Below, one piece after another: positions 14,599-48,914 of a DNA stretch of 64,000 nt. The DNA is taken from contig JAQVFR010000003.1 in NCBI GenBank assembly GCA_028697145.1, positions 3,988 to 67,987 of the forward strand, given 5' to 3'. The notes below the pieces were generated by a model. That model was not told where the DNA came from, did no database searches, and saw nothing but the letters and a program-made list of their open reading frames with translations. The position numbers and the translations under genes were made by a program. This DNA comes from Actinomycetota bacterium. Its GTDB lineage: Bacteria > Actinomycetota > Geothermincolia > Geothermincolales > RBG-13-55-18. The stretch's first letter is position 1. Every line of letters starts with the position of its first letter.

Positions 14599-15597
14599 TC
14601 AGGGCATCTCCGTCCAGACCTTGCCGCCCTTGCGCCAGGTGATGGGCGGTAATTCCCTCTCCACCATGGTGTCCGCGTTCACGCGCGGGTAGCCCAGGAC
14701 GATGGCCGAAGCCACCTTGTAGGGCCACTTTATCCCCAGCTCCCTCTTGAGCCAGGGAAGGAAATTGATGCCGATGCTGAACGACAGCCAGCAGGTGACC
14801 AGCCCCAGGGAGTGGGCGGCCAGGACCATGTTGGTGCCGCAGATGCCAACGTCAATCCCCGGGTCGTTCATCCCCCGCTTGTCCATGAGGATCAGGATCA
14901 GGCACGGGGCCCCCAGGAAAACGTCTTTCGGCTTGAGGATGGCCGTGCCTCCCGATATGCCCCTCTGATCCATCAACCCGGGAGCCAACGCGCATAAGAG
15001 GCTGAGTATCCTCCTCGTCAGGGGATTGGTCTTGCCCGTCCAGTAGAAATTGGTGAGCAGCCTCCAGAAGGGGTCCATCTTCTCCGCGATATAGTCCATC
15101 TCCGCCCGGTCATTGATCACGATAAAGGCCCAGGGCTGGCAGTTGCCGTGGGAGGGGGCGAAGCGTCCGGCTTCGACCACGCGGCGCACAAGCACGTCCG
15201 GCACGGGGTCCTTGGAGTAGATGCGGTTGCTGCGGCGTTTGTAGATTACCTCCTCGACCGGCGTCAGCCCCTCGATACCCTCCACCTCCGGTATTTTCGG
15301 GTAACCGTCATCACCATGGTAGGACATGGTCCTGAAGATGCCTTCCTCCACGTTGTAGAAGCCCCGCATGCCGACTGCGCCCTTCTCACAGTGGGAGATA
15401 CAGGCGGAACAGGAAAAACATACCTTCCCATCGATCAGCCGCGCCTTCTTGTCCACGATCTCCAGGCAGCCCATGGCGCAGGCCTTGACGCAGTTCCCGC
15501 AGCCCGTACACTTCTCGGCGTCGATGATGATTTCCGAGAGCGACCACGCCTCCGGGTGAGCGGGCAAGTAAGCCTTCTTGAACTTTGCAGACGCCAT
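14599..15597 (-). CDS. Two-[4Fe-4S] ferredoxin domain fused to a nitroreductase-family domain
   Basis: CTGCGNCVKAC and CFSCSACISHC cluster motifs are followed by a nitroreductase-like fold (RRSNRIY..., HGNCQPW). The ATG at 15597 follows AAGGGGGA; an alternative ATG is at 15612. Confidence 0.75.
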   Translation of the reverse strand: MASAKFKKAYLPAHPEAWSLSEIIIDAEKCTGCGNCVKACAMGCLEIVDKKARLIDGKVCFSCSACISHCEKGAVGMRGFYNVEEGIFRTMSYHGDDGYPKIPEVEGIEGLTPVEEVIYKRRSNRIYSKDPVPDVLVRRVVEAGRFAPSHGNCQPWAFIVINDRAEMDYIAEKMDPFWRLLTNFYWTGKTNPLTRRILSLLCALAPGLMDQRGISGGTAILKPKDVFLGAPCLILILMDKRGMNDPGIDVGICGTNMVLAAHSLGLVTCWLSFSIGINFLPWLKRELGIKWPYKVASAIVLGYPRVNADTMVERELPPITWRKGGKVWTEMP

Positions 15598-15790
15598 CGT
15601 TTCCCCCTTCATCTCATACCTTTTACCATACGTACGCGTGCCAGGCCTGCACTCGCTGCACTCCGTTCAGGTGACTGGCACCGCCGCCTTCGGCGCTGTC
15701 GCTTCCGCGATGCATCCTGTCGAAACCTTTTTCATGCCTCGCGCCCCCCAGCCCGATAACTATGGGGTCGGTCGCCGCGAGTCCGCGAGC

Positions 15791-16077
15791 GGGACCGTTA
15801 CCCCAAGGTTCGGGCCAACCGAAGCCTTCCGTCTGCTGGACCGCCGCCAGCACGGCGGGCAAGGTGCTCGGAGGAGCTTGCGACGACGACCATCCTTGCC
15901 GCCGGGCTCCTGCGGAAGCGGGACCGTTGCCCCAAGGCTCGGGCCAACCGAAGCCTTCCGTCTGCTGGACCGCCGCCAGCACGGCGGGCAAGGTGCTCGG
16001 AGGAGCTTGCGACGACGACCATCCTTGCCGCCGGGCTCCTGCGGAAGCGGGACCGTTGCCCCAAGGCTCGGGCCAAA
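15791..16077. repeat. 129-bp tandem direct repeat, about 2.2 copies, intergenic
   Basis: The unit gggaccgtt(g/a)ccccaagg(c/t)tcgggccaaccgaagccttccgtctgctggaccgccgccagcacggcgggcaaggtgctcggaggagcttgcgacgacgaccatccttgccgccgggctcctgcggaagc starts at about 15791, 15920 and 16049. Copies are near-identical. All six frames give R/P/G-rich low-complexity translations. Confidence 0.85.
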
Positions 16078-16078
16078 A

Positions 16079-17338
16079 TCAACCCACGCGCTCCAATATA
16101 TGGATGCACATGGCCGCTTCGCCGGTGCCAATGAAGCCACCGCCGTTCTCTGACATGGCTATCCTCGCCCCCTCCACCTGGCGCTTGCCGGCCTCGCCCC
16201 GCAACTGCGTCACCAGCTCGACCAGTTGGGCGATACCAGAGGCCCCGATGGGATGTCCACGGCATTCCAGCCCTCCCGAGGTGTTGACGGGGAGCTTGCC
16301 CCCCAGCTTGGTGGCACCGGACTCCGCGAAGGGGCCGCCCTCTCCCTCTCCGCAGAAACCCAGTTCCTCGCACTGCAACAGCTCGCCGAAGGCGGTGGCG
16401 TCGTGCACCTCGGCCATGTCGATGTCCTCGGGGCCCACGCCGGCCACCTCGTATGCCTTCCTGCTCAGGCGTTCCCCGATGAGGTCCATGTCGCCTCCCT
16501 CGGGGATGGCGCCTCCGGTGAGCACCGATGCAAGGATCTTCACCGGACGCGCGCCGGTGAAACGCTTCAAGGCCTTCCCCGAGCAGAGTATCGCCGCCGT
16601 GGCCCCGTCCCCCATGGGCGCGCACATGGCGCGGGTGAGGGGGTAAGCCACCGGCCGGTCATTGAGGACCTCCTCGAGGGTCATATCCATCTGGTACTGG
16701 GCCAGGGGGTTCAGGGATGAATGGTAATGGTTCTTGGCGGCGATTATCGCCAGTTGCCGCTGCGTGGTGCCGTATTTCTCCATGTGCATCCGCGCCGCCG
16801 CGGCATAGAGGTCCATGAAGGGAGAGCGGGCGCCCTCGCCCCCTCCCTTCTTGCCCCCTCCCGTCGCCTCGGCCTCGGCCGCCTTCTTCTTCTCGTCCTC
16901 CATGAAAGCGGCAAGCACGACACGGATGAACTCCACGTCCGCGTTGGACATGAACATCTCGAACATGGCCTGCTTGTTGTCCGGGTTGAACATCTTCTCC
17001 ACCCCGATGGCCAGCGCCACGTCGTAAGCGCCCGCCCTGATGCCGAGGTAGGCGCCGTTCACGGCGCTGGTCGCCCCGGCGCAGGCGTTCTCTACGTTCA
17101 TGGTCGGGATGCCCTCGATGCCAAGCGGGACCAGCGCCACCTGGCCGCGTATGGAATGCTGGCCGGTGACTATCCCCCAGAAGGAATTGGAGAACCACGC
17201 CGCCTCAATATCCTTCTTCTGGACCGGGCAGTCCGCCAGCAGGTTGTCGATGACCTCCGCGGTCATCTGCTTGATGCTCTTCTCCGGGTACTTGCCGAAG
17301 CGGAACATCCCCACGCCGATGATATAGACGTCCTCCAT
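16079..17338 (-). CDS. SCP-x/nonspecific lipid-transfer-protein-type thiolase (thiolase-like superfamily)
   Basis: Begins MEDVYIIGVGMFRFGKY...; has NVENACAGATSA with an active-site Cys, and a C-terminal GGLECRGHPIGASG. The RBS AGGAGG sits 6 nt upstream of the ATG at 17338. Confidence 0.8.
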   Translation of the reverse strand: MEDVYIIGVGMFRFGKYPEKSIKQMTAEVIDNLLADCPVQKKDIEAAWFSNSFWGIVTGQHSIRGQVALVPLGIEGIPTMNVENACAGATSAVNGAYLGIRAGAYDVALAIGVEKMFNPDNKQAMFEMFMSNADVEFIRVVLAAFMEDEKKKAAEAEATGGGKKGGGEGARSPFMDLYAAAARMHMEKYGTTQRQLAIIAAKNHYHSSLNPLAQYQMDMTLEEVLNDRPVAYPLTRAMCAPMGDGATAAILCSGKALKRFTGARPVKILASVLTGGAIPEGGDMDLIGERLSRKAYEVAGVGPEDIDMAEVHDATAFGELLQCEELGFCGEGEGGPFAESGATKLGGKLPVNTSGGLECRGHPIGASGIAQLVELVTQLRGEAGKRQVEGARIAMSENGGGFIGTGEAAMCIHILERVG

Positions 17339-17426
17339 CCCTGCCTCCTTTGTTAAGACTTCGACGTCGCACAGACAGAACAGGCGCCTCAGCAGCACTA
17401 TGCGATCGCCAACCGCAGACAGTTTA

Positions 17427-17451
17427 CATACCCTGGTATGATACCATGGTA
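17427..17451. promoter_or_regulatory. Operator-like double palindrome, site 2, about 90 bp upstream of the thiolase start
   Basis: Sequence ATACCCTGGTATGATACCATGGTAT; its second 12-mer is a perfect palindrome. TTTACA is immediately upstream. Confidence 0.6.
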
Positions 17452-17474
17452 TTTTAATCCCCCGGCAGCGTCAA

Positions 17475-18539
17475 TTACGGCTGCCAGCCTTCCTCGGAGG
17501 CCTCTAGCAGGCGCAGCAAGGCCTCCTGGCTCGTGGTGGGATACATCTGACAATACTTGGCATCTCGCATAAGGCGTTCCATGCCATAGTCGCGCATGTA
17601 ACCGTAGCCACCGTGAATCTGTACACCGTCGATGGCCGACTTGCACGCGCTCTCCGTGCAGCGCAGCCAGGCCACCACGGCTGGCGCGATCCCGCCGTCC
17701 TCGCAGGCCCTCTTGACCAGGGTTCTCCCCTGCTCCACCGCCGCGAGCATCTCGGCCAGGAATATGCGCATCTGCTGGTGCTCTACGATCATCTTCCCCG
17801 CCTGATACCTCTCGCTCGCGTAGGCATAGGCCTTGTGCAGCGCGCTGCGCGAAATCCCGTTGGCTATGGACGCCAGGCCCAGCAGCATCACCCTTTCCAC
17901 CGCCCCTGCCATGTCCCCCCCGGAGATGATGTTGGAAGGCTCGGCGCCGTCGAGACGGACCGACCCGGCCCGGGCAGCCCTCAGCCCCATCTGATACGCC
18001 TCGGGTGTCGTCTCCACGCCGCGAGTGTCGCCGCGCACCGTGAGGGCTTGCGTCCCCCCCGAGCCAGCCGGGATCAGGGTGATGAAGGAGCATTCCTGGA
18101 CGTTGAAGGCGAAGGGCACCCGTCCCTGCACCCTCCCCCCCGAGAACGAAACATCGCCGGGGAAGGCGAGACATGCGGGATAATCGTCGGGGCTCACGCC
18201 GGTGATCAGCGCCTCGGGCTCGCCCATGGCCGACGGCAGCAGGGCGGTATTATGCGCCAGCAGGGAGGCGGCGACTCCCGCCTCCTCCACCGCTATCTCC
18301 TCCAGGGCGACACAGAAGGCGTATTCGTCCAGGCCCCCTCCCCCGCATTCCTCGGGGATGAGGGCCGCCAGCATTCCAATGTCACCCGCTTTGGCGATGA
18401 CCTCCCTGACCCGCCCCCGGGTCGGCTCCAGGTCGAGTTGCTCCGCCTGCTGCGAGAGTTCTTTTTGCGCGAAGGCCGCTGCGGTCTCTCGCAGTATCCT
18501 GTACTCCTGGTCCTCGTGAAATTCCGGCAGCCTGATCAT
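17475..18539 (-). CDS. Acyl-CoA dehydrogenase family protein, short form (354 aa), candidate beta-type subunit
   Basis: Has the ACAD C-terminal helical domain (IHGGYGYMRDYGMERLMRDAK). Its ATG overlaps the upstream TAG (TAGATG), indicating translational coupling to 18540..20015. Confidence 0.7.
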   Translation of the reverse strand: MIRLPEFHEDQEYRILRETAAAFAQKELSQQAEQLDLEPTRGRVREVIAKAGDIGMLAALIPEECGGGGLDEYAFCVALEEIAVEEAGVAASLLAHNTALLPSAMGEPEALITGVSPDDYPACLAFPGDVSFSGGRVQGRVPFAFNVQECSFITLIPAGSGGTQALTVRGDTRGVETTPEAYQMGLRAARAGSVRLDGAEPSNIISGGDMAGAVERVMLLGLASIANGISRSALHKAYAYASERYQAGKMIVEHQQMRIFLAEMLAAVEQGRTLVKRACEDGGIAPAVVAWLRCTESACKSAIDGVQIHGGYGYMRDYGMERLMRDAKYCQMYPTTSQEALLRLLEASEEGWQP

Positions 18540-20015
18540 CTATCTCACCCCTTTCTTGAAGGGACCGGGGATCTCCACCTGCAGCGACTGAGCTATCTCG
18601 GTGTTGTAGACCACCAGACGGTTCAGCTGGTTGGTGCCCTCGTAGATCTGGGTCAGCTTGGCGTCACGGTAGGCCTTCTCGACCCAGGGCCTCTGCGGTG
18701 AATCGTCCGCCCCCATGACCTCCAGCGCCCGCGAAGTCAGAGCCATGGCGTTGTCCGCGCACGTGAACTTGGCCAGGGACGCCTTGGCCAGCATGTCCGT
18801 AACGTCCTCGTCCTTTATGAAGTAGCGGAAGAGCGCGTTGACGAGAGCCTTGCCGTAATAGGAGTTGAGGAAAGCCGAGTAGGGCTTCGATGTGCGTATT
18901 GTCCGCGGAATGAGGAAGGTCGAGAGGAAGATGGGATGGGTGAAGGCGCCGCGGAAGACGGCGTCGCCGCCAAAGCTGTGATTCAGGAAGAGTCCGCGGT
19001 TCTCCTGTATGCTCCCCAGCATATCCGCCAGGGTCATCCTTATGCGGTCCTCGTCTATGGGACGCTTGCCGTTGCGTTTCTCCCTGGTCCAGGCCAGGAA
19101 ATGCTCGAAGGCGCCGCGCGCGATTCCGGTGGCGATGGCCCCCACCGGCCCCCGGGAGGCGGCCATGATGATGAGGATGCCGTTGGCCATGCCGTCCCCC
19201 TCGTAACCGAGCACGTGCGAGTCCGGCACGAAGACGTCCTCGAAGAGCAGTTCGGCCGCGTGGCAGGCCCTTTGCCCCATCTTGAGCTCCACCCTCGGCG
19301 TGGAAAATCCCTCCATATCCCTCTCCACCAGGAAGGTGGTCCAGGTCTGCAGGGGCCGGCTGCGGTCCGTGGCCGCGGTGACCGTGAAATACTTTGCCTC
19401 GCTGCCGCCGGAGATGAAGCACTTTCGGCCGTTGAGGAGGTAGCCTCCCTTGACCTTTTTCGCCTCCATGCCGATCTTGCCCACCTCGAGGAACTCAGGC
19501 TCCTCCACGTCCGTCCCTGCCGACGGCTCGGTGATGCCGTAGGCCATGACCACCGGGTTGCCCTTCTTTTCCTCCTCCACTATCTCATGCAGGACGGTGT
19601 CCCAGTGGGCCATGGCGCCCGAGGCGATGACCGGCGCCACTCCGAGGGAGTGCGCCGCGAGCGCAAGCCCGATGCCGCCGCATGCCGAGCTCAGTTCCTC
19701 GACCGCAAGGGCCATGCCGGTGATCATGTACTTCTCGGCCAAACCCCCCAGCACCTTGGGGATGGCAAGCGAGAAGATGTTGTATCTGCAGGCCTCCCTC
19801 ATCGTTTCCCAGTCGAAGTAATCCGGTTCCCGCTCCATGCGCTGGTCAAGCTGAAGAGCCCGTGGCAGCGCCACCTCCCGTTTGTACTCTGCGCAGCCCT
19901 CGACGATCCCGAGTATCTCGTCGATCCCCTTGCGGTCATGTTCGCGCAAGGCCGCCAGCGCCGGGAAATCGAGGAGAACCTTCTTCCCTCTCTCGCTCAC
20001 CCCTTTAGCGGTCAT
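18540..20015 (-). CDS. Acyl-CoA dehydrogenase family protein (491 aa)
   Basis: Carries AYGITEPSAGTD and a C-terminal YEGTNQLNRLVV ACAD signature. Confidence 0.8.
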   Translation of the reverse strand: MTAKGVSERGKKVLLDFPALAALREHDRKGIDEILGIVEGCAEYKREVALPRALQLDQRMEREPDYFDWETMREACRYNIFSLAIPKVLGGLAEKYMITGMALAVEELSSACGGIGLALAAHSLGVAPVIASGAMAHWDTVLHEIVEEEKKGNPVVMAYGITEPSAGTDVEEPEFLEVGKIGMEAKKVKGGYLLNGRKCFISGGSEAKYFTVTAATDRSRPLQTWTTFLVERDMEGFSTPRVELKMGQRACHAAELLFEDVFVPDSHVLGYEGDGMANGILIIMAASRGPVGAIATGIARGAFEHFLAWTREKRNGKRPIDEDRIRMTLADMLGSIQENRGLFLNHSFGGDAVFRGAFTHPIFLSTFLIPRTIRTSKPYSAFLNSYYGKALVNALFRYFIKDEDVTDMLAKASLAKFTCADNAMALTSRALEVMGADDSPQRPWVEKAYRDAKLTQIYEGTNQLNRLVVYNTEIAQSLQVEIPGPFKKGVR

Positions 20016-20299
20016 ACCTTCCCCCCTTCTCGCATCTCCACGACAGGCACAGCGCTGCGGGTACCCTGCGGATAAGCCAAGACGGCCGTCAAATCATTCC
20101 GGAACGACCTGATGTTTCCGTCACCAGGCGATCGCCGATTCCAAGGGGCTTTCCGCACCCGCACCTGAGACGAAGAAACAGCCTGATCGCACAGGATCAG
20201 GTATCGGGCTTGCGACCAGCCATATGCATGCAGCCAAGACAAAGGTATTGTAAACCATTAATCACTACTGAACAAAGCCATTCGGCTTGTATAGGAATA

Positions 20300-20325
20300 G
20301 AGGCAGGCCCGGTTTGGCCTGCCTC
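20300..20325 (-). terminator. Stem-loop downstream of the enolase-fusion gene (intrinsic-terminator-like)
   Basis: Perfect 10-bp stem gaggcaggcc/ggcctgcctc with a 6-nt loop. On the minus strand it is followed by a U-containing tract (UAUUCCUAUA). Confidence 0.4.
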
Positions 20326-20341
20326 GTACTGGAAGTCTTCC

Positions 20342-22834
20342 TTACTTGTTGAACGCGCCCTCCCCCACCTCGCCGGTGAAGATGGGCTCGTAGAATCGCC
20401 TGCGCGCTTCGGGGTAGTTCTCGAAACTCAGGCCGATGCGCTCGTTGAGGTCCATTCCGAGGTTGCGGTACACCAGCCACGGCGGCAATCCGTCCCTCAG
20501 GGCAACCGCCTTGATGAGAAGCTGCCCCAGGGTGAGGGTGACGTCCCCGCCGACCATGCGCTTGAAGGACGCTTCCTCCTCGTAGGCGTCCCACTCCGCC
20601 TCCGAGTACGCCGGGAGGATGCCCTTGTCCCTGGCCTTCTCTATGTCCATGGCCATGATCATGCGCTCGATCTCGAACGCGTTGCCGACGGCGCCCAGCG
20701 GCATTCCCACCAGACCCAGCTTCTCGACTATCTCGTTGACGACGGGGATACCCTCCTCGGGGCCCATGAGTATGGTCTCGTTCTCTCCGCGGGACAATCC
20801 CCCGGGGATGGGAGAGACTATCTCCATGCCGTTGGAGAGGCGCATGGAGGACATGAGCCCGTACTTGCCCGCCCCCAGGGTTGAGGGGAAGGCGGTGACG
20901 GAGCTGATGGTAACGTCCGGACCCACGCCGGAGGTGACGGCCGCCCCGCTGCGCCAGTCCTCGGCGGATTTCTGCATGTAGTAATAAAGGCCGGCGCGGT
21001 TGGAGAGGAACACGCCGCCCAGCTTGGCCAGGACGACCCTGCCCCGCGGCCGGTAGGAGGCAGCCAGCGTGGCCGTGACCTCTAGGGGGTCGGGCAGGGT
21101 ATCGGGCTGGGTGGAGCGGTGGGAGATGACGGTGTTGAAGCCGGCGGAGTGGAACACCTCCATGTACATCCAGGCCTGGGAAAAGGTGCCAACCTGGTTC
21201 AGCTTCACCAGGCCCGCGTTACACACGCCCTGCTTGAGGGCATCGTATGCAATGGTAGGGTTCGTCACCAGGCTGTCGTCGCCGATGATGACCATCTTGT
21301 CACCGAGCTCTTCCGTCAACCTCTGCCAGAACCTCCACTGGCTCTCGGGCGCCGCGAAGGGGTCCTCGGAGGCGAGCTGGTGCCCCCACTGGTAGAAGAG
21401 CTCTATGTAGCGGTCGCACAACTCATCCCCGCTCATCTTGCGCCCCTGCCAGGTATAGAGGTGCGTCTCGGGGTCGAACATGGTGTCCGAGTCCGCGGCG
21501 TTGTCTATGCCCAGGAACACGTTCTCGCCGTAGAGGTATCCGTGCTTCGCGCCCGCCTTGCCCACGGCCTCCATGAGCAGCTTGATGGCCGCCTCGTCCC
21601 CGCCGCCGTAGCCGTTGAAGGAGCATCCCCCCTCGTTCTCGCGGCCTCCCCCGGATACTCCCTCCCGGGAAAGTATCTCCGCCACGATCTGGTTCTGGAG
21701 GGCCGGCAGCACCCGCAGGGTACCGAAGAAACCCCGGCTGGCGACGTCGTCCGTCTCCTGCGGGAAGAGGATGATCCACTTCTCCTGGGCCACCAGGTCG
21801 GGAGAGGTGTTGCCCTTGTTGCCCTCGGCGTCCACGTACTCGGTGTGCTTGCCCGCCTGGATGGCATTGTGCGCCCCCTCGGGCAGGTAGACCGCTACGC
21901 CCTTGAAGCGGGGATCGTCTCCCCCGTATTCCGCCCAGTTACGCACCTCGCCGATGAGCCGCTCGTAATTGCTCTTCGCGCGGCTGTCGATCTCCTCGCG
22001 GCCGGCGTCCACTCTCATGGTGCCGGCGGCAGCCTGGGCGGCCAGCTCAGCCTCTATCTTCCTCTTCTCGCGGTAGCGGTACATGGCGTTGTTGTCCTGA
22101 TGCCTCCCCAGGAAAGCGATGGTGCCCAGGGCGAGGATGCGTGGGGTTATGTAAGCCATGACCTCATTTATCGGCGTTTCCGGCCAAGCTACGCGCCAGG
22201 CGATGGAGAACCCGAAGAGGGCAAGGCCGGAGAGGCCGGCGATGTAGGCCACCCAGAGGTCGAAGCGCGAGCCGGCGGCGGCCACGTTGAGGGCCGGGGT
22301 GCCGTTGAGGCGGTAGTTCAGGCCCTCCTTGATGATGGCCGGGTACTTGCCGGCGGGCCCGAGGAGGAACATCTTGGCCAGTTCGGTCCAGAAGCCGCCG
22401 CTGCCGGTCCTGAACTTGACCGAGCCGTCCTCCTGCCTCTCCACCAGCCTCGCCCCGATGGTCTCCTGTAGGCTGCGCTCGAGGTTGTACGTCTTCGCCG
22501 CCTCCAGGACATGCAGGGTGTGGTGTCCGCCGAGCATGAAGTACGCGAAGAGGATGCCGAGCGCTATGGATACGCTGAACTCGATGGCGAAGCCTCCTAT
22601 GGAGCCGGACATGGTCTCGGCTATGCTTGGGTAGAACAGGGAGACCAGGACCTGCACGTGCAGGGCCACGGCGAAATAGCCCCATTTCACGAACTCGGAG
22701 GTGGACCAGGCGCCCAGGAATATGCCCTCTCTCCAGCTCCTTGGCATGATCGCCGACATTATCCTGTCGAAGCGTGGGTTGTACGCAGCGCCAGTGCGCT
22801 GCGCCAAGGGTTTTCTTCCTGACTTGCTCACCAC
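20342..22834 (-). CDS. Membrane-anchored enolase-superfamily fusion: four N-terminal TM helices, a complete enolase domain and a 230-aa C-terminal domain of unknown function
   Basis: Residues 1-260 contain four hydrophobic helices. Residues 270-600 carry enolase motifs GREEIDSRAKSNYE (enolase N-terminus), GYGGGDE, IDNAADSDTMFD, LASEDPFA, IIGDDSLVTNP, KLNQVGTFSQ and ISHRSTQPDT. A GTG start at 22834 sits 11 nt after GAGGAGG. The reading frame is continuous. Confidence 0.8.
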   Translation of the reverse strand: MVSKSGRKPLAQRTGAAYNPRFDRIMSAIMPRSWREGIFLGAWSTSEFVKWGYFAVALHVQVLVSLFYPSIAETMSGSIGGFAIEFSVSIALGILFAYFMLGGHHTLHVLEAAKTYNLERSLQETIGARLVERQEDGSVKFRTGSGGFWTELAKMFLLGPAGKYPAIIKEGLNYRLNGTPALNVAAAGSRFDLWVAYIAGLSGLALFGFSIAWRVAWPETPINEVMAYITPRILALGTIAFLGRHQDNNAMYRYREKRKIEAELAAQAAAGTMRVDAGREEIDSRAKSNYERLIGEVRNWAEYGGDDPRFKGVAVYLPEGAHNAIQAGKHTEYVDAEGNKGNTSPDLVAQEKWIILFPQETDDVASRGFFGTLRVLPALQNQIVAEILSREGVSGGGRENEGGCSFNGYGGGDEAAIKLLMEAVGKAGAKHGYLYGENVFLGIDNAADSDTMFDPETHLYTWQGRKMSGDELCDRYIELFYQWGHQLASEDPFAAPESQWRFWQRLTEELGDKMVIIGDDSLVTNPTIAYDALKQGVCNAGLVKLNQVGTFSQAWMYMEVFHSAGFNTVISHRSTQPDTLPDPLEVTATLAASYRPRGRVVLAKLGGVFLSNRAGLYYYMQKSAEDWRSGAAVTSGVGPDVTISSVTAFPSTLGAGKYGLMSSMRLSNGMEIVSPIPGGLSRGENETILMGPEEGIPVVNEIVEKLGLVGMPLGAVGNAFEIERMIMAMDIEKARDKGILPAYSEAEWDAYEEEASFKRMVGGDVTLTLGQLLIKAVALRDGLPPWLVYRNLGMDLNERIGLSFENYPEARRRFYEPIFTGEVGEGAFNK

Positions 22835-23096
22835 TTTTTCGCCAACCTCCTCGTTCCGGGACCCGGCTCACCCGGGTCTCATTGCGTTGCGACCGGCATA
22901 CCAATCATCAAACCGGCCCTTTCCTTACACGGACGCCCTTTCCGCAGAAGCGCTGGGCTTTTCGGTGTTTCCTTCAACGGGATGATATTTTACCATCCCC
23001 TGCGCTCAAACTCACGATATACAATTGAGTGGTCTCTCCTCTTTTTCCTTCTCGGACCTGCCTACAAAAGAATTACAGCAACGATCGCGGCGGGGC

Positions 23097-25733
23097 CTAC
23101 AGCCTTATGCGCAGATCGGAGACGGGATAGCTCATGCAGGGATGGATGTATCCGAAATGCTCGTCCGCCCAGCGCCTGAGAACGCGCGCGGGCGCGAAGA
23201 ACTCGCCCGCCACCAGGCGGGTGCGGCAATAAGTGCACTCCCCTGAACGGCAGACGGCCTCGACGACCAGGCCCGCCCGCTCCATGGAGTTCATGAGGGG
23301 CTCGCCGGCCCTGGCCTTGAAGGTCATGCCCGAACGCTCCTCTACCACCTCGAACTCCGTCTCGGGCGCGACTCCAGGCCAGCCTTTCTCCATGGTCACA
23401 TCGTCCGGGGGGCCGTAGGCCTCTTTTTTCACGCGCGTTCCCGGCACCGACAACGCCGCCAGCGCGCCCTCGCAGAACGGGTACATCTCGGGCGGCCCGC
23501 AAATATAGAAGGTCCTGCCCTCCACGTTGCCCAGTGCGCTCGATATCATGTCCGCGTCGATGAATCCGCACAGTCCGCCCCAGTCGCTGTCCGGCTCGGA
23601 GATGATGAAGTCCACGTCGATGTTGTCGTTCTCCGATCCCAGTTGAGCCAGCTCCTTGCGGAAGATGATGTCCCCCGCCTCGCGGGACCCGTAGAGAAGG
23701 TGGATGCGCAGGGGACTCCCCTTCTCCACGACCTCGCGCATGATGGACATGAACGGGGTGATGCCGCTGCCGCCCGCGAGGAACACCAGGTCGGAGCCGT
23801 CCACGAGCGGTTCGTGGTAGAAGCTGCCCGCGGGCCCCGTGGACTCCAGCACGTCCCCTGCCCCCACCTCGTCCAGCAGGCAGGAGGAGACGAAACCCCC
23901 CGCCTTGCGCCTGACCGTGATGTCGTAATACGGCTTTCCGGGAGCGGAAGAGATGCTGTACGGCCGCGAGGTCTTCACTCCGCCCGCCTCGACGAAGAGG
24001 TTGACGTACTGCCCCGCGCGGAACGCGGGAAGAGTCCCCTCCACCGGCACCAGGCGCAGGGTCCTGGCGCTTTCCGTCTCCTCCAGGACCTCAGACACCC
24101 GGAGCGAGAGGCGGTGCGGGTGCAGGCCGGCCATGGACTTGTCGACCGCGTGGGCATCCATTTCTATCTCCGGCGCCTCGGCCGCCTGGTTCTCACAGAA
24201 GGTCTTGAGGCCGTCGATGGCGGCCGCCTCCATGCCTCCCTTCTCCATGTCCTCGAGGACGTCCTCCGCCGCCGTAACGCCGGAATTGATGCAGGGCTGA
24301 AAGCCCCCGCCCGTGCGCACCCAGGCGCCGGCGAGGTAGAGCCCCCGCACCGGGCCGCGGTTGGGGAGGCGCATCATCGTCCCCTCCGCCGGCGAGTTCT
24401 CATACCCGTAGACCGCCCCGTAGGCGTTACCCGTGTAGCGCATGTGGGTGAGGGGGGTTGCGACCTCCACCTCCTCGATATGCTCCTTGAGCCCGGGCGC
24501 CACCTTGTCCGCGAGGTCGATGAGCCTGCCGGCCAGGGTGTTCTTGGCCTCAACGTACCGCTCGGGGGAGAGGTCGAGCCACACGTCGCCGTAACCCATG
24601 GTGGTAAGGGATACGGCGCACGTACCCGGGGGAGAGAAGTCCGGGTCCACGATGTTATAGGGGGCTATGGCGCATCCCGTTGGCTCGAAGACGGCGCTGC
24701 GCCTGGCCACCTCGTAATGGTTCTCGAAATCGTAGTCCATGTTGAACATGGTCTCGTGGTTCTCCAGACCCAGTTCCGACACGGGGCAGTCCAGGCCGAG
24801 GAAGACGGAGAAGAGGGAGTTGCCGATAGTCCCCCAGCCCAGGCGCTTGAGGTACCAGGAAGGGATGTTCTCGCGCCCCACGAGGTCGATGCAGGTGGCG
24901 ATGGGGCTGGCGTTGCTCACTACGTAAGACGTGGATATCTCCGCGCCGTCCTCCGCGACCACGCCCCGCACCTCATTGCCCTCCAGCACTATGCGTGAGG
25001 CCCCGTTGTTGAGCCACACATCCCCGCCGTTCTCCATGATGGATTCCACGAAGGCCTGGGAGAGGGCCTGGCTCTTGCCCTTTATGTGCACCGGGCCGTA
25101 CTTGAGGTAGATGGCGTTGGCGATGGCGAAGAGGAGGAATGAGAGCTTGGAGGGCGGGAGGCCGTAATAGCCCCAGAGCTGCGCGATCACCGACCTTGCC
25201 TTTTCGTCCTTGACCTCCGCGTTCAGCACGTCCGCAAGGTTGGCGCCGGCATAGGTCATGAGGTTGGTGAAGGCCGAAGGGTCCTTGGCCATGGCGTCGG
25301 GGGTGAAATTTTCGACTTCCTCCATGATGGCGAACATGAGGGAGGTGAACTTCCTGATCCCCTCCTTCTCGACGGGGAAATGTTCGCACAGCACCTCGTC
25401 GTAGCCCGCGTGGTCGGCCGGCATCACGAGGTCGAGGTCCGGGTAGAGGCTGCGGTAGAAGTCCGGGATGTCCAGAAACTCCACCTTCTGTGCCACACCG
25501 CACTTCTCCAGCGTGCGGTACAGGGGCCCTCGCCGGTCGGCGTGGCCGAGTCCGGAGAGCTCGTGCAGGGAGATCTCGAACTCGAAGCGCCCGCGGCGAA
25601 AGGTGGAGGCGTATCCTCCCGGTACGCAATGTTTCTCCAGGAGCAGGACCTTCTTGCCGGCCACCGCCAGGTTCGCCGCCGCGGAGAGCCCGCCGAGCCC
25701 CGCCCCTACGACCACGGCATCGTAATCTCTCAT
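23097..25733 (-). CDS. Three-domain flavoprotein: CrtI/phytoene-desaturase-family FAD oxidoreductase, FNR-like FAD/NAD(P)-binding reductase and plant-type [2Fe-2S] ferredoxin
   Basis: N-terminal Rossmann motif DYDAVVVGAGLGG, then PGGYASTF..GRFEFEIS and a C-terminal LYLAGAWVRTGGG (CrtI family). The middle region has RPYSISS and LAGGSGITP (FNR-like). The C-terminus has CRSGECTYCRTRLVAGE...C. The ATG at 25733 follows GGAGAGGGAGG. Confidence 0.8.
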   Translation of the reverse strand: MRDYDAVVVGAGLGGLSAAANLAVAGKKVLLLEKHCVPGGYASTFRRGRFEFEISLHELSGLGHADRRGPLYRTLEKCGVAQKVEFLDIPDFYRSLYPDLDLVMPADHAGYDEVLCEHFPVEKEGIRKFTSLMFAIMEEVENFTPDAMAKDPSAFTNLMTYAGANLADVLNAEVKDEKARSVIAQLWGYYGLPPSKLSFLLFAIANAIYLKYGPVHIKGKSQALSQAFVESIMENGGDVWLNNGASRIVLEGNEVRGVVAEDGAEISTSYVVSNASPIATCIDLVGRENIPSWYLKRLGWGTIGNSLFSVFLGLDCPVSELGLENHETMFNMDYDFENHYEVARRSAVFEPTGCAIAPYNIVDPDFSPPGTCAVSLTTMGYGDVWLDLSPERYVEAKNTLAGRLIDLADKVAPGLKEHIEEVEVATPLTHMRYTGNAYGAVYGYENSPAEGTMMRLPNRGPVRGLYLAGAWVRTGGGFQPCINSGVTAAEDVLEDMEKGGMEAAAIDGLKTFCENQAAEAPEIEMDAHAVDKSMAGLHPHRLSLRVSEVLEETESARTLRLVPVEGTLPAFRAGQYVNLFVEAGGVKTSRPYSISSAPGKPYYDITVRRKAGGFVSSCLLDEVGAGDVLESTGPAGSFYHEPLVDGSDLVFLAGGSGITPFMSIMREVVEKGSPLRIHLLYGSREAGDIIFRKELAQLGSENDNIDVDFIISEPDSDWGGLCGFIDADMISSALGNVEGRTFYICGPPEMYPFCEGALAALSVPGTRVKKEAYGPPDDVTMEKGWPGVAPETEFEVVEERSGMTFKARAGEPLMNSMERAGLVVEAVCRSGECTYCRTRLVAGEFFAPARVLRRWADEHFGYIHPCMSYPVSDLRIRL

Positions 25734-26086
25734 GTCGCAACCTCCCTCTCCGTCACCCGATCCGCTGCCAGTAACAAGTCTAGATTGAGTATTACCCCCA
25801 AGTTTGACGGCGTAAACTCGCGCGCGCCCGGAAAATGACGGGGTGTGGGGGCCCGTCCCCTCATAAGGGTAGAATGGGCAACGAGCAGCGCTTGCGATGT
25901 GCAAAGGGGCTGGAATGTATGGACATCACAGTTAGACAAGAGGGAAGCGCGCATATCGCGTTGATAAGAAGCCGAAAGTATTGATCGCCGATGTGGACGA
26001 CGCATTGGACCCCGCGAACGGCTAAGAAGACCACGGGGCTAGACGGATCGCGGGTGCCTCATCCCGGGAAATACGGACCGGTGCGC

Positions 26087-28508: not shown

Positions 28509-30608
28509 TTACCGCGTACGCGCCATCCTCAGCAGCCCATAGGAAGCGATGAAAGCGCCTGTCAGGATCAATAACCCTATCATCAGCAGCAGGTAGCTGA
28601 CCTCGAAGCCGGTTACCGGCAAGGTCTGCCCGCTTTCGATCTGGGCGGGAGGAACGACCACCTCCCCTGCCACCTGCACGTTGTTGAAGAAATCGACTAC
28701 CTTCTCCTCCCCGGCGGAGAGGCTGAAGGAAACCGAGACGGGCGCGGTCGCCACGTATCCATCGCCCACGATCTCCTCGACGGTGTAGTCGCCCGCCTTG
28801 AGACCCGTGAAGGCGTAGGAACCGTCGGCCCCGCTCACTGTGGTGGCGATGATATCGCCCTCGGCGTCGCGCAGGTTGATAGCAACGCCGGCCAGGCCGG
28901 CCTCACCCTCGTCGAACGCGCCGTTGGCGTTGAGGTCGAGCCACTTGGTGCCGAGCACCGAGGCGTATTGGGCATTAAGGAAATCGACACGCTTCTCCTC
29001 GCCCGCTCCCAGCATCACTCCGATCTGTGCGGCGCTGGTGGCGTAGTAGCCTTCCGGCACCTCCTCCATCACCATGTACTGGCCATCCAGCAGGGCCTCG
29101 AAGACGAAGTAACCATTGGCGTCGGTCACTCTCTCCTCGGAGACACCCATGCCCTCGAGGACTATGGTCACGCCCGCGAGCGCGGACTCTCCGTCCTGGC
29201 GGATACCGTCCGCATTGGCATCCAGCCACTTGTACCCGTAGATGCTGGAGAGCCTCTTGTTCATGAAGACGTAGTGCTCAGCGTCACCGTCCTCGAGCAC
29301 GATGTCATGCTCGGTCCCGGTGACGGACACCCAGCCTTCGGGCACTACCTCATAGAGGTGGTATTCACCGGGTGTGATCCATCCGAAGTCGAACAAGCCG
29401 TTCTCGTCGCTGAAGGCTTCGGCGTAGAAACCCTCGCCTTCGAGCACGAACTTGACTCCCGCGACAGGCTCCTGGGTGATGAAGTCGATCTTCTCGCCGG
29501 TTATGCGGCCTCTAGGATCGGTGACCACGATCTCCACGTCCACGTCATCCTCGAGGTCTCCGATCTTGGCCTTGTTGTTGAGGATATAGACCCCGGCTTC
29601 CTCGGCGGTCAGGTCCTTCTCGATGACGATGGTGAACGGGGCCTCCGCCAGGTCCAGCATCCAGGGACCGGTCAGGGAGCCTGCGTCCGCGCCGTTGATG
29701 GTGGTCGAGGTTATCTCGTAACTCAGTCCCGTTGCGGGATCTATTGTCTCTATATCCTCCAGCATCACCTCGGTGGAACCTCCACCAGCGGGCTTCGCGA
29801 AGTCCTGGCGATAATGGAATTTCCAGTCCTGCATGCCCGGCTTCGGGGGGTCGGGCTTGTTGCTGATGGTGATCTCGATGAGGTTGCTCATGGAGGTCAC
29901 GCTGGCCAACGGCACAGGCAGGGTGAATGTACCAGAGTAGGAATAGACGTGGGGTCCACCCGTGGGTATGGCGTTATCCCCCATGGGAACCGTAGTGGTT
30001 ATGTTGGAGGTCGCCGCGAGCCAGGCAGGTCCGCCCGCCTTGTACCAGACAGTGTCGGAGACCGCGATCACGTCAGCGGCCCATTCGCCCGTGTTCTGCA
30101 CGAAGATATTACCCTCGATGTTATATGAGTTCGAGAGCTCGGCATCCACCTCTATGGTGAAGTTGACCTGCTTGGTCTCTCCCGCCTTCATCTCTATGTA
30201 GGACTCGGAAGCCGTCTTCTCCAGGCTTATCTCGGGCCCGGAGGCGGTGACCAGGTCAACGTCCTTGGATATATCAAGGCTGGTGACCTCCCAGGGGTCC
30301 TGCTGGACCATTACCATGGCCTCCGACTGCTCCTGGGCCGCCTTTTCTTCGACTATGGCCTGCTCTTCGACGGCCGCTTTCTCCTCAAGGGCTGTAGCCT
30401 CTTCCTCGGCGATGGTCTCTTCGTCGGCGATTGCCTCCTCTTCCGCCTCAGCCCCCTCTGCGATGACTACCGCCTCCGATGTCGAAGCCTTCTTCTCTCG
30501 GGAGGCTCCCGCATCGGAAGCGGAGGCAGGAACGAAGGGGAAAGCCAGCAGCAGCGCAATGGCCACTACCAGCATCATGCTGAGTAGCGTTCTTATTCTT
30601 TCGTTCAT
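28509..30608 (-). CDS. LPXTG-anchored cell-surface protein with Cna-B/SdrD-B-type repeat domains
   Basis: Signal peptide; repeated D.N.NG..D.GE.GLAGV.I modules; C-terminal LPVTG followed by a hydrophobic segment and an RMARTR tail. Confidence 0.8.
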   Translation of the reverse strand: MNERIRTLLSMMLVVAIALLLAFPFVPASASDAGASREKKASTSEAVVIAEGAEAEEEAIADEETIAEEEATALEEKAAVEEQAIVEEKAAQEQSEAMVMVQQDPWEVTSLDISKDVDLVTASGPEISLEKTASESYIEMKAGETKQVNFTIEVDAELSNSYNIEGNIFVQNTGEWAADVIAVSDTVWYKAGGPAWLAATSNITTTVPMGDNAIPTGGPHVYSYSGTFTLPVPLASVTSMSNLIEITISNKPDPPKPGMQDWKFHYRQDFAKPAGGGSTEVMLEDIETIDPATGLSYEITSTTINGADAGSLTGPWMLDLAEAPFTIVIEKDLTAEEAGVYILNNKAKIGDLEDDVDVEIVVTDPRGRITGEKIDFITQEPVAGVKFVLEGEGFYAEAFSDENGLFDFGWITPGEYHLYEVVPEGWVSVTGTEHDIVLEDGDAEHYVFMNKRLSSIYGYKWLDANADGIRQDGESALAGVTIVLEGMGVSEERVTDANGYFVFEALLDGQYMVMEEVPEGYYATSAAQIGVMLGAGEEKRVDFLNAQYASVLGTKWLDLNANGAFDEGEAGLAGVAINLRDAEGDIIATTVSGADGSYAFTGLKAGDYTVEEIVGDGYVATAPVSVSFSLSAGEEKVVDFFNNVQVAGEVVVPPAQIESGQTLPVTGFEVSYLLLMIGLLILTGAFIASYGLLRMARTR

Positions 30609-31590: not shown

Positions 31591-31871
31591 TACACCGGTA
31601 CGGCTGACAAAAAGGGAGAGAGGGATAGGGCCAAGAGAGAACGGCTGAGACCGGAGAATGGGCAGTTTTCCCGGTTGCGGCCAGAGTTCATCCGGCGTAG
31701 ATGCACGGGGCAATGCTGCTGAAACGGCACGATCTCGACTATCTCATCGATGGCCTGAGCCTCACCTTTTTTATCCGTGCCTGGCGGGAGGGTGTCTTTC
31801 CCGCGTAATAGCGGGAATGACGCTGTTCACGCTGAGTAACCGACTGCATGAAAAGAAAGGGAGGTGAGATC

Positions 31872-44057: not shown

Positions 44058-45014
44058 TCACGCGCCGCACCCACGTGCCGCGGTGATGGCCAGGCCATCA
44101 AGGATATCCTTCTCGCTGACAAGCAGGCGCTCCCATCCCAGCTCGCGCAGGAACACGACCAGCACCGCGGTCCCACCCACGATGACATCGGCCCGGCCGG
44201 GCTCCAGCCGCATGAATTCCTTCCTCTCGGCCAAGGGGAGCGCCTGGAGAAACCGATATATCTCGGTGATCTCCTCTCGACTCAACCAGGAATGGTGGAT
44301 TGCATCCCCATCGTATTCCTCCAGCCCCTGCCTGATCCCGGAGATGGTGGTGACCGTTCCCGCCAGCCCCACCATGAGCCGCGGAGAAAAGCCGGCGATG
44401 CGCATGACGTGGGGGCAGAGCACGGAACCGATATATTCCTCCATCTCCCGCACCTCCTGCGCGCGTGGCGGGTCTCCGACCAGGAACCTCTCGCTCATGC
44501 GCACGCAGCCGACGTCCAGGCTGAGTTCCTCCACGATAGCTCCGTCCCGTCCCAGGATTATCTCCGTCGAGCCGCCTCCGATATCCACCACCAGAACGGT
44601 ATCGCGGCGGGGACACAATTCCCCCAGGTCGTAGGTGGATCCCAGGAAGGAGAGCTGCGCCTCCTCCCGGCCTGAGAGCACGCGCGGCCTGGTACCCATG
44701 ATCCGCTCCACCAGGCCCAGGAACTCCCCGGCGTTGGACGCGTCCCTGGCGGCGCTGGTCGCCGCCACCTCGCAGGCCATCACGTCTTCCCCGCGCATCA
44801 GTTCGCGGTAGTCGCGCAGGACCTCCGCCGTGCGCTGCATGGCCATCGCATCAAGGCTCCCCGTTTCGTCCACGCCCTGTCCAAGGCGGGTTATCTTCAT
44901 GATGCGGTGCATGGTCCGTATTTCGGGCGAAGCGGCCGCACCCGAGACCTCGGCCACGAGCAGGCGGACCGAGTTGGTGCCGATATCCACGCCCGCCACG
45001 CGTATCGCCCTCAT
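44058..45014 (-). CDS. ppx: Ppx/GppA-family phosphatase (exopolyphosphatase/pppGpp phosphohydrolase)
   Basis: VAGVDIGTNSVRLLVAE and DIGGGSTE, an ASKHA fold. ATGA overlap with the upstream DUF501 gene. Confidence 0.8.
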   Translation of the reverse strand: MRAIRVAGVDIGTNSVRLLVAEVSGAAASPEIRTMHRIMKITRLGQGVDETGSLDAMAMQRTAEVLRDYRELMRGEDVMACEVAATSAARDASNAGEFLGLVERIMGTRPRVLSGREEAQLSFLGSTYDLGELCPRRDTVLVVDIGGGSTEIILGRDGAIVEELSLDVGCVRMSERFLVGDPPRAQEVREMEEYIGSVLCPHVMRIAGFSPRLMVGLAGTVTTISGIRQGLEEYDGDAIHHSWLSREEITEIYRFLQALPLAERKEFMRLEPGRADVIVGGTAVLVVFLRELGWERLLVSEKDILDGLAITAARGCGA

Positions 45015-45562
45015 CGCCTCCCCTCTTCCCTCAGGAAGGGGCCGCAATTCCCTTCGCACTCCCGCTCCTGCGCCCCGCTCAGCTCCTCCGCCACTTCCGC
45101 CCCCACCGGGTTATCTCCTCCCGCGAGGAAATGGGCCAGGTGAGCGTGGAGGCATTTCAATCCCCCGGCCACCGTCCCACCGATGCCCTCCCGGCCGGAG
45201 AAATACTCTCTCGCCTTTTCCCCCGCCCCCAGTCTATCCGCCCATTTCTCCCTCTCCACGGCATAGTCGCGCTCCGCCTGCCGCAGCGCTTCAGCGAATC
45301 CCGGCACCTCCTCCGCCTTGCGCCGCAGAAGCCCTCGCAACTCCCCGCTCTCCAGGCCGGAGACGCGGCGCTGCAGCAAGGGGCATGTGAGCCAGAACAG
45401 CGTGGGGAAAGGCGTCCCGTCGGGAAGCAGTGGAGGGTTGGCGATCACCTCGACCACGCCGTGAGGGCAGCGGGCGGCCACCCTCACCTCACCGCGCACT
45501 GGCCGGCCGAGCTGTCTCCCCAGCGTCTTCAAGTCTTCCGTCCCCGGGGATTCGTATTCCAT
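45011..45562 (-). CDS. DUF501-domain protein (actinobacterial partner of ppx)
   Basis: Conserved syntenic position before ppx as in Actinomycetota; has CPHGVVEV... and C..H.H motifs. Start is uncertain (ATG at 45562 or GTG at 45607). Confidence 0.5.
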   Translation of the reverse strand: MEYESPGTEDLKTLGRQLGRPVRGEVRVAARCPHGVVEVIANPPLLPDGTPFPTLFWLTCPLLQRRVSGLESGELRGLLRRKAEEVPGFAEALRQAERDYAVEREKWADRLGAGEKAREYFSGREGIGGTVAGGLKCLHAHLAHFLAGGDNPVGAEVAEELSGAQERECEGNCGPFLREEGRR

Positions 45563-48263: not shown

Positions 48264-48268
48264 GGCGA

Positions 48269-48706: not shown

Positions 48707-48914
48707 GGCCTCACTCCTTTCCGCATTTACCCCTCCCCATGCAAAGCAAGAAGATTCTATCACCGCCCGCTGCGCCCGGACAACAATGAAAAGGCCCCGT
48801 GGGGGCCTTTTCCAGCCTATTTGATGGTCCTTTCGTTTCTCTATTTTGTATCCGTATGGGAGGGCGGGGGTTTTTGCCTGTATTCGACAGGGCGTTCCCG
48901 CCTCCTCTGGTCTC

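Follow-up and report, generated by a model that had tools for sequence, protein, structure and literature searches.

A probable membrane-tethered, circularly permuted enolase carried on a degenerate site-2-protease-like domain in Geothermincolia

Few enzymes are as conserved or as well studied as enolase, and to our knowledge every described enolase places its capping domain before its TIM barrel, a fixed order that defines the enolase superfamily. The window considered here, the whole 64-kb stretch of actinobacterial DNA that was analysed, carries an 830-aa reading frame in which enolase motifs follow four hydrophobic helices. What is this protein, and is it still an enolase? An earlier note on this DNA had described an enolase-family protein of highly unusual build, tethered to the membrane by several helices, and the present analysis supports that description while revising the identity of most of its parts. 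The main explanation, which we hold at a probability of roughly 60%, is a cytoplasm-facing, membrane-tethered and circularly permuted enolase that would retain enolase chemistry.

The features of the gene and its product are collected in Table 1. The single continuous frame seen in the earlier note was confirmed; it is uninterrupted, begins at a GTG codon 11 nt downstream of a Shine-Dalgarno-like sequence, and has a uniform nucleotide composition along its whole length. An exact-sequence look-up of the 830-aa protein returned no record. Upstream of the gene, the promoter consensus scan gave 1 site where 0.8 are expected by chance, and downstream the number of terminator-like sites was not above chance. 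An Rfam scan of positions 19900-23300 at E<=1 yielded a spurious lncRNA as its sole match, and a riboswitch or leader RNA at the gene was rejected. No canonical eno is present within the window, and eno is absent from the place upstream of divIC that it usually occupies in actinobacteria. Beta-oxidation-type synteny around the permuted-enolase gene is common only to its closest relatives (L003-L005, L016 and partly L006) and is absent in L001 and L007-L015, and a short-chain dehydrogenase lies upstream of the gene only in L003, L005 and L016. The neighbourhood is therefore treated as uninformative on function, and a conserved functional neighbour in Geothermincolia was rejected because shared synteny is limited to the closest relatives.

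Table 1. Coordinates of the gene, its flanking signals and the regions of the encoded protein.
Feature	Position in window	Strand	Remarks
ORF	20342..22834	(-)	830 aa, uninterrupted, GTG start
Shine-Dalgarno-like AGGAGG	22846..22851	(-)	11 nt 5′ of GTG at 22834; read directly from sequence
Promoter-like site TTGAGC-16-TATCAT	22982..23009	(-)	in 263-bp upstream gap; consensus scan, weak
Terminator-like hairpin	20182..20201	(-)	in 327-bp gap 3′ of stop codon; weak
N-terminal tail, residues 1-44	22703..22834	(-)	predicted cytoplasmic; 8 K/R vs 2 D/E
Four-TM domain, residues 45-243	22106..22702	(-)	degenerate site-2-protease (M50)-like
HHTLH, residues 104-108	22511..22525	(-)	putative HExxH zinc-protease motif remnant; catalytic Glu replaced by His
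Basic helical linker, residues 244-298	21941..22105	(-)	12 K/R; contains REEIDSRAKSNYE (residues 281-293)
Enolase TIM-barrel domain, residues 299-632	20939..21940	(-)	Pfam Enolase_C, hhalign, residue mapping
Enolase capping ("N-terminal") domain, residues 641-791	20462..20914	(-)	C-terminal of barrel; hhalign, phmmer, AF2
Conserved C-terminal tail, 39 aa, residues 792-830	20345..20461	(-)	alignment invariants and AF2 helices

The analyses show that the protein is built, in this order, of a basic tail, a four-TM putative pseudo-protease, a basic linker, a TIM barrel, a cap and a conserved tail. Across the clade, mean pairwise identity reaches 81.5% in the barrel, 79% in the cap and 70% in the TM domain, values equal to or above those of neighbouring genes. 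The N-terminal tail is the least conserved part (49%) and has low pLDDT in the AF2 model. Two helices are modelled in the linker (246-272 and 279-295), and soluble orthologues of 560-586 aa begin inside it. The C-terminal tail is likewise modelled as two helices (785-800 and 807-820) and holds the invariant motif Y815-E-P-I-F819.

The central segment had been taken for a complete enolase, and this claim failed. Pfam Enolase_C matches the protein with E=1.8e-26 (93.5 bits vs a cut-off of 21.5), and hhalign pairs E. coli enolase residues 133-421 with residues 299-632 at a probability of 98.7%; judged from these alignments, the central region is the enolase TIM barrel alone, without its cap. The motifs NEGG, EDPF, GDDSLVTNP, KLNQVGT and SHRS do stand in canonical order, as the earlier note had it, and are invariant among homologues. 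The stretch REEIDSRAKSNYE, read there as the enolase N-terminal block, bears a chance resemblance to it: D283 is its only invariant residue, and it lies in the second predicted linker helix. On TIGR01060, the curated enolase equivalog model with a cut-off of 300 bits, the protein scored 101.7 bits in natural order and 103.1 bits once its parts were re-joined in the canonical way. A score of about 102 bits that does not rise upon re-joining indicates a strongly diverged enolase. Insertions in the barrel, for example at residues 331-349 and 404-412, could alter specificity.

Where, then, is the cap? The C-terminal 230 aa, which the earlier note could assign to no family, correspond to the enolase N-terminal domain followed by the 39-aa tail. 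When the window protein's own clade was aligned by hhalign to a canonical-enolase alignment, the cap matched enolase residues 3-135 (probability 92.8%, E 4e-7), and with distant relatives added it matched residues 2-136 (probability 99.3%, E 4e-20); significance was obtained only against the canonical-enolase alignment, as the clade profile compared with the single E. coli enolase gave an insignificant E of 0.34 in the cap region. By phmmer the cap segment matched residues 321-486 of a relative, P0052 (E 1e-26), a segment that Pfam calls Enolase_N; the window protein itself, in natural or re-joined sequence, has no direct Pfam or NCBIfam match to Enolase_N. In the AF2 model the cap has strands at 642-650, 660-666 and 671-676 followed by helices, with a pLDDT of about 90. 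Its topology is beta3-alpha4, with an active-site loop PGGLS681RGE, an insertion of about 25 residues behind the second helix, and the equivalent of the DSRGNPTVE block at residues ~648-661.

The exchanged order recurs among homologues. Against one canonical enolase, the family HMM gave two matches whose order was exchanged (profile positions 605-697 to enolase 15-114, and 289-595 to 155-428), and in 8 relatives Pfam reports Enolase_C and then Enolase_N. Re-joining P0057 in canonical order merged two TIGR01060 matches into one that covers profile positions 2-400 of 425 with 297 bits, and relatives of the P0057 type, at 293-297 bits, nearly reach the cut-off. Identification of the C-terminal region as the enolase capping domain makes the protein a circularly permuted enolase, barrel first and cap second. 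An echo at the junctions ("WLVYRNLG" and "NWAEYGG") hints that the permutation may have arisen by duplication and subsequent deletion.

Residue mapping located all 14 enolase catalytic, Mg2+-binding and substrate-binding positions in the window protein. The barrel supplies H330, Q350, E351, E401, D444, E490, D491, D520, K544, H572, R573, S574 and K604, and the 14th position is Ser681 of the cap loop, the counterpart of the mobile-loop Ser of enolase. The set is identical in 22/22 family members and in 11 canonical enolases. It comprises the catalytic base (Lys) and acid (Glu), three carboxylates that bind Mg2+, the substrate-binding His, Arg, Ser, Lys and Gln, and the loop Ser, and it covers both Mg2+ sites. 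Since every canonical functional residue is present and invariant in the family, enolase chemistry is most likely retained. At the cytoplasmic face of the membrane, Mg2+-dependent abstraction of an alpha-proton would be followed by beta-elimination of water, which would interconvert 2-phosphoglycerate (2-PG) and PEP, or a closely similar compound. The protein thus shares with canonical enolase (Eno; TIGR01060; Pfam Enolase_N plus Enolase_C) a homologous TIM barrel, a beta3-alpha4 cap and all functional residues. It differs in its barrel-then-cap order, its length (830 aa vs about 430), its membrane anchor, its barrel and cap insertions and its conserved tail.

The four hydrophobic helices reported in front of the enolase were confirmed within residues 45-243, both as Kyte-Doolittle peaks and as AF2 helices, and the AF2 model of residues 1-275 has a pLDDT of 85. 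Counts of K/R in successive loops are 8, 0, 11, 0 and 12, which by the positive-inside rule predicts an N-in/C-in topology in which both the N-terminus and the enolase module lie on the cytoplasmic side. The cytoplasmic loop within the TM domain (residues 104-190) is conserved and contains two beta-hairpins.

The membrane region was not the plain anchor that had been assumed. Distant relatives from Acidobacteriota and Planctomycetota have homologous TM domains with intact HExxH, AAGP and LD motifs, the HExxH being accompanied by a downstream Asp. HHTLH of the window protein aligns to their HExxH column, which reads HE[MILTR]GH, and in the column of the third-ligand Asp it has "FLG" (residues ~243-244, Gly) where HExxH-intact relatives have "LD" or "FD". 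Both HExxH and the downstream Asp are kept in 11 relatives, both are lost in 8, including the window protein, and 2 are mixed. Peptidase_M50 (PF02163) gave sub-threshold matches of 19.7-25.4 bits (E 1e-5 to 6e-4) to P0057, P0064 and P0068; the gathering score of 27.2 bits is reached by no relative, and the window TM domain gave no match. Alignment of the TM domain to RseP by hhalign had an E of 8.7e-4 at a probability of 23%, with the HExxH, PxGG-loop and AAGP motifs aligned. Foldseek with the TM-domain model found no match at E below 0.4, and a TM-domain search of a protein database retrieved 6 fragments only. The loss of the catalytic Glu and of the Asp ligand marks the window TM domain as a predicted pseudo-protease. 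Taken together, the motif comparisons show a domain of apparent descent from a site-2-protease-type zinc metalloprotease, now a putative pseudo-protease anchor that is still well conserved. It is about 70% identical across the clade and has remained under purifying selection; the anchor is not simply a passive tether.

Resemblance to characterised site-2 proteases (RseP, SpoIVFB, MjS2P) is clearest in the distant relatives, in which HExxH stands where a TM helix ends on the cytoplasmic side and is followed by a Pro/Gly-rich hairpin loop, AAGP and, further on, an Asp co-varying with it. The window copy, in contrast, is without the catalytic Glu, the Asp ligand and the NxxPxxxLDG motif as such. 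SpoIVFB and RseP, like the window protein, combine their membrane core with soluble domains (CBS domains in SpoIVFB, PDZ domains in RseP). An enolase as partner domain of a site-2 protease is not known to us, and the literature searches found none. A looser parallel is offered by iRhoms, which are pseudo-proteases relative to rhomboid proteases and are retained as membrane scaffolds; there, as here, catalytic residues are lost and an intramembrane-protease fold, a putative one in our case, is kept (70% mean identity for the window clade). The window protein belongs to a different protease family, is bacterial and is fused to a metabolic enzyme, so the likeness is one of analogy only.

The same fused architecture was found in 34 full-length clusters (90% identity clustering) at 60-90% identity, drawn from independent assemblies in four sources (NCBI, JGI, ENA and Logan), and at 15 loci in GTDB species-representative genomes of Actinomycetota, including Candidatus Anoxymicrobiaceae (class Geothermincolia). 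The earlier suggestion of a lineage-specific rearrangement or fusion is borne out by this distribution; what it had not seen is the kind of rearrangement, a circular permutation. In L023, L025 and L026 the anchor and the permuted enolase are separate adjacent genes (TM-profile E 1e-21 to 1e-39), with the anchor gene immediately upstream. One sister clade is without the membrane domain, and its core is still 82-84% identical to the window protein; this clade dropped the anchor and kept the core, which argues that the enzyme core has a function of its own. These soluble forms do not represent the ancestral state, as they make up a single clade nested inside the membrane forms. The L025 contig also carries a canonical enolase beside the permuted form, so that in this relative, at any rate, the housekeeping role does not fall to the permuted form.

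A third component appears among deeper relatives, most of which lie next to a PPDK-like phosphohistidine protein or are fused with one. PPDK-like genes of about 835-890 aa adjoin the permuted-enolase gene in L014, L025, L028 and L031, a PPDK-like fragment is adjacent in L023/L024, and in P0061 a PPDK-like protein is fused to the enolase. This partner has only weak Pfam PPDK_N (ATP-grasp) matches and a phosphohistidine-swivel-type motif, read by eye; the sources name it for its swivel domain only. PEP would be the metabolite shared with pyruvate phosphate dikinase and PEP synthase, but the partner is without the PEP/pyruvate-binding TIM barrel found in dikinases, and the functional link is putative. 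No PPDK-like gene occurs in the 64-kb window or in the flanks of close relatives. Given that deeper relatives couple the anchor-enolase pair to this PPDK-like protein of ATP-grasp/phosphohistidine type, the ancestor was probably a PEP-linked machine at the membrane, of which the window protein is probably a reduced version. More speculatively, and in our judgement with the odds well against it, the window protein could be the reduced survivor of an ancient and undescribed three-part membrane machine in which a site-2-protease-type domain, a permuted enolase and a PPDK-like protein coupled 2-PG/PEP chemistry to phosphotransfer or intramembrane proteolysis, and in Geothermincolia it may replace canonical enolase as the only enolase.

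Several other explanations were weighed against a permuted enolase with retained chemistry. Two of them are refuted. An assembly or annotation artefact, in which a frameshift or lost stop fused an ordinary eno with the gene of a membrane protein, had been named in the earlier note as what could overturn its picture, and split TM and enolase genes are indeed known from distant lineages. The same continuous frame in all 34 clusters excludes it. The enolase part is permuted and not an ordinary eno in any of them, and composition is even across the gene; the probability of an artefact is close to nil. Hardly more credible is a complete canonical enolase in the middle of the protein, flanked by a plain four-helix anchor and an unrelated 230-aa C-terminal domain. 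The order of the barrel motifs and the superficial likeness of the linker stretch to an N-terminal block would suit it, but N-terminally the matches go no further than enolase residue ~133, and the spacing between "REEIDSR" and the barrel is about 17 residues, against about 120 in canonical enolase. That stretch is unconserved and helical in the model, and the missing cap makes up the C-terminal domain.

The remaining two concern what the module does. It might be an enolase-type enzyme whose substrate is some other 2-hydroxy acid, phosphorylated or membrane-proximal, and which shares a pathway with the PPDK-like protein; the window clade would keep a part of that pathway. The adjacent or fused PPDK-like genes, with their missing PEP/pyruvate barrel, are consistent with such a pathway, as are the score far below the equivalog cut-off and the canonical enolase beside the L025 module, which argues against a redundant function there. 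We nevertheless regard a substrate other than 2-PG as unlikely, given that Arg, Ser, Lys, Gln and His, which in canonical enolase bind the 2-PG phosphate and carboxylate, are all invariant, that P0057-type relatives score almost at the equivalog cut-off, and that PPDK-like genes are missing from the window and from the flanks of its close relatives. Less plausible still is a non-catalytic 2-PG/PEP sensor or scaffold that reports to the membrane domain, both halves being pseudo-enzymes in the window clade. Many lineages fuse or place the module beside the site-2-protease-like domain, known site-2 proteases have regulatory soluble domains (CBS, PDZ), and the protease site is already degenerate here; a sensor, however, would have no need of a general base, a general acid and three Mg2+ ligands that stay invariant over wide divergence, and the soluble clade kept its core after losing the membrane domain.

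A literature search on circularly permuted enolase, or on enolase and glycolysis in Geothermincolia, found nothing relevant. A natural permutation that keeps the full catalytic set in at least three bacterial phyla implies that the enolase fold tolerates re-wiring, and the permuted enolase offers a clean test case for the origin of permutations. Because such proteins score under the curated enolase threshold, pathway reconstructions from MAGs of Geothermincolia and the like may wrongly report incomplete glycolysis or miss a paralogue with a novel role. That the permuted enolase is fused to, or paired in an operon with, a site-2-protease-like domain, and that a PPDK-like neighbour recurs, points to an unexplored link between central carbon metabolism (2-PG/PEP) and the membrane.

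The window gene reads without interruption, as the earlier note had proposed, from a GTG start preceded 11 nt upstream by AGGAGG, and GC content is even over the frame and the neighbouring genes. The four hydrophobic helices placed near the N-terminus in that note were recovered inside residues 45–243, both as Kyte-Doolittle peaks and in two AlphaFold2 models, and the enolase active-site motifs it had listed are present (NEGG, EDPF, GDDSLVTNP, KLNQVGT and SHRS). Matches to Pfam Enolase_C (E=1.8e-26) and to PDB enolases (E down to 3e-25) stand well above chance level. Taken together, the frame, the helices, the motifs and these matches indicate that the ORF, its membrane helices and its kinship to enolase are real. 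Among 5.8 billion proteins searched, 50 close homologues were found at 60–90% identity; 34 of these clusters, drawn from NCBI, JGI, ENA and Logan assemblies, share the same fused, full-length architecture, for which the note had suggested a search. In GTDB species genomes, scanning identified 15 loci. Recurrence of the identical fusion in these clusters and loci rules out an assembly artefact.

Features of the window protein, its surroundings and the loci of its relatives
Feature	Location	Strand	Details
Window ORF	20342..22834	-	830 codons, GTG start, uninterrupted
Barrel catalytic/ligand positions	H330, Q350, E351, E401, D444, E490, D491, D520, K544, H572, R573, S574, K604		identical in 22/22
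Cap-loop catalytic position	S681		relocated cap; identical in 22/22
Amine-oxidase/phytoene-desaturase-like flavoprotein + FNR-type FAD/NAD module + 2Fe-2S ferredoxin domain	window 23097-25904	-	935-aa fusion
Beta-oxidation-type gene set	window 14599-20015	-	
Beta-oxidation-type gene set	window 46427-49288		
Large surface-type protein	window 28509-30608	-	SdrD_B, SpaA, CarboxypepD_reg repeats; divergent pair
Large surface-type protein	window 31848-34289	+	as above
ppx/gppA	window 44058-45059	-	~6 kb downstream of divIC, same strand
DivIC/FtsB-like gene	window 51130-51627	-	
Two FAD_binding_4 (FAD-linked) oxidases + pyruvate kinase	window 51832-57259	-	upstream of divIC, in place of eno
Separate anchor gene	L023 6887-7969		TM-profile match
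Separate anchor gene	L025 7078-8001		TM-profile match
Separate anchor gene	L026 5483-6367		TM-profile match
PPDK-like gene	L014 6983-9625	-	
PPDK-like gene	L025 1659-4166		
PPDK-like gene	L028 1-1074		
PPDK-like gene	L031 10001-12670		
PPDK-like gene, fused	L029 2240-8179		

The Pfam match is limited to residues 389–576, part of the barrel, and TIGR01060 scores 101.7 bits where its cut-off is 300. When a family profile was aligned with E. coli enolase, residues 299–632 corresponded to enolase 133–421, which spans the entire barrel and none of the N-terminal domain. The complete central enolase of the earlier note is thus complete as to its barrel and lacks the N-terminal domain at that place. 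The segment REEIDSRAKSNYE (residues 281–293), which had been read as the N-terminal block, was rejected in that role: it lies merely ~17 residues ahead of the barrel, is a predicted helix in the model, and has D283 as its sole invariant residue among homologues. The C-terminal ~230 residues, previously assigned to no nameable family, form three strands and then helices in a high-confidence model, and this is the beta3-alpha4 topology that the enolase capping domain has. With a profile built from the window's clade, residues 642–790 aligned to enolase 3–135 at a probability of 92.8% (E 4e-7), which rose to 99.3% (E 4e-20) when distant relatives were added. Run on one canonical enolase, the family HMM matched in swapped order, with profile positions 605–697 on enolase 15–114 and 289–595 on enolase 155–428.

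Distant relatives display the same order. When 1.84 billion representatives were searched exhaustively with the HMM, just 13 proteins reached E<=1e-30; below these, canonical enolases appeared in their thousands. Among intermediate matches, Pfam placed Enolase_C ahead of Enolase_N in P0052, P0056, P0057, P0060, P0061, P0063, P0064, P0083 and others, and homologues also occur in Acidobacteriota and Planctomycetota. When P0057 was cut and its parts re-joined in the canonical order, its two TIGR01060 matches became a single continuous one (positions 2–400 of 425, 297 bits), with the same outcome for P0052. The re-joined window protein showed no gain (103 bits), as its sequence is too diverged. 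After re-joining, all 14 canonical enolase positions were identical in each of 22 family members; they cover Mg2+ binding, acid/base catalysis and substrate binding, roles that we assign, in yeast numbering, from the established enolase literature. These data show that the window protein is a circularly permuted enolase whose catalytic set is complete. Residues 784–794 (LPPWLVYRNLG) and 298–305 (RNWAEYGG) both align to canonical enolase PLYEHIAELNG; this possible echo at both ends of the permuted module would fit tandem duplication followed by truncation.

The N-terminal domain aligns to those of the distant relatives, many of which have HExxH where a TM helix ends; after it come a Pro/Gly hairpin loop, the AAGP motif and, within the final TM helix, an Asp. 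Peptidase_M50 matches fell below threshold in three relatives (E 1e-5 to 6e-4), and E. coli RseP aligned with the profile at the same three landmarks (E 8.7e-4). Of 21 copies, 11 keep both HExxH and the Asp, 8 have lost both and 2 are mixed, the pattern expected of a shared zinc site. In the window protein and its clade, H[HQ]xxH replaces HExxH and Gly replaces the Asp, which leaves the site dead; the membrane domain is nonetheless ~70% identical across the clade. The 4-TM domain is thus a degenerate site-2-protease-like domain.

In three distant lineages (L023, L025 and L026) a separate anchor gene (TM-profile E 1e-21 to 1e-39) lies directly upstream of a soluble permuted enolase, with gaps of -1 to 31 nt. 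Within the window's family, soluble forms of 560–586 aa make up one clade nested among membrane forms, and those at L003 and L016 share the window gene's neighbourhood, which means that the anchor was lost secondarily and that the enolase core would work without it. The MAG STD1_74 holds two differing copies (L017 and L018), one a membrane-type fragment (residues 23–415, 73% identity) and the other a fragment of residues 367–830 (84% identity), so two paralogues may occur in some genomes.

Deeper relatives repeatedly adjoin a PPDK_N-like protein of ~835–890 aa, called after its phosphohistidine swivel domain in the sources. It neighbours the permuted enolase at L014, L025, L028 and L031, occurs as a fragment at L023/L024 and is fused within the 1979-aa P0061; no such gene was found in the window. 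The family has weak PPDK_N (ATP-grasp) matches and a phosphohistidine-swivel-type motif without the PEP/pyruvate barrel, adjoins or fuses to S2P-like and permuted-enolase genes in at least 5 lineages, and has at least 196 homologues (Acidobacteriota, Saganbacteria, Cloacimonadales, Aminicenantes and Elusimicrobiota); it is widespread and uncharacterised. Five genes of interest lie at L025 190-10145 on one 18.7-kb contig. This contig holds a canonical enolase and the PPDK-like gene alongside the permuted enolase, a divergent 551-aa enolase-like gene of normal domain order, a 289-aa gene of no assigned family with a HGDLRPEHI kinase-like motif, and the split TM gene; its permuted enolase has a 215-aa extra C-terminal domain, also found in P0035 and P0050. 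At L026, a phosphoglycerate mutase lies near the permuted enolase.

The window gene is solitary, separated by 263 bp from its upstream neighbour and by 327 bp from the downstream one, and no riboswitch was found at it. Upstream lies the amine-oxidase/FNR/2Fe-2S fusion gene, kept directly upstream in L003, L004, L005 and L016; downstream are an acyl-CoA dehydrogenase pair, a thiolase and a nitroreductase. This synteny is limited to the closest relatives (it is missing from L001 and L007-L015) and was therefore not used to infer function. The beta-oxidation-type genes, which we take to resemble a steroid or branched side-chain set, include paired acyl-CoA dehydrogenases, the second (17475-18539) without the middle domain, a Thiolase_C_1-type thiolase, a ferredoxin-nitroreductase fusion, a MaoC/FAS1-dehydratase hydratase pair and one more acyl-CoA dehydrogenase. 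L003 and L005 have a homologue of the surface-type repeat proteins at the same place.

Actinobacterial eno usually lies upstream of divIC. No canonical eno was found in the 64-kb window or in ~300 kb of relatives' flanks, and the usual eno-ftsB-ppx arrangement seems broken up in the window. As to whether the permuted form is the sole enolase, these observations are suggestive only.

Neither a natural permuted enolase nor an M50-enolase fusion was described in the literature searched. All close homologues and loci come from uncultured Actinomycetota, several labelled Candidatus Anoxymicrobiaceae, a member of class Geothermincolia, and one named in its source as a Candidatus Geothermincolia protein; their source names are "hypothetical" or "enolase-like domain-containing". 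The permuted fused protein is conserved within this actinobacterial class. By the positive-inside rule, both termini, the HHxxH motif and the enolase module are all predicted to be cytoplasmic, and we infer that the protein would carry out enolase chemistry at the inner face of the membrane.
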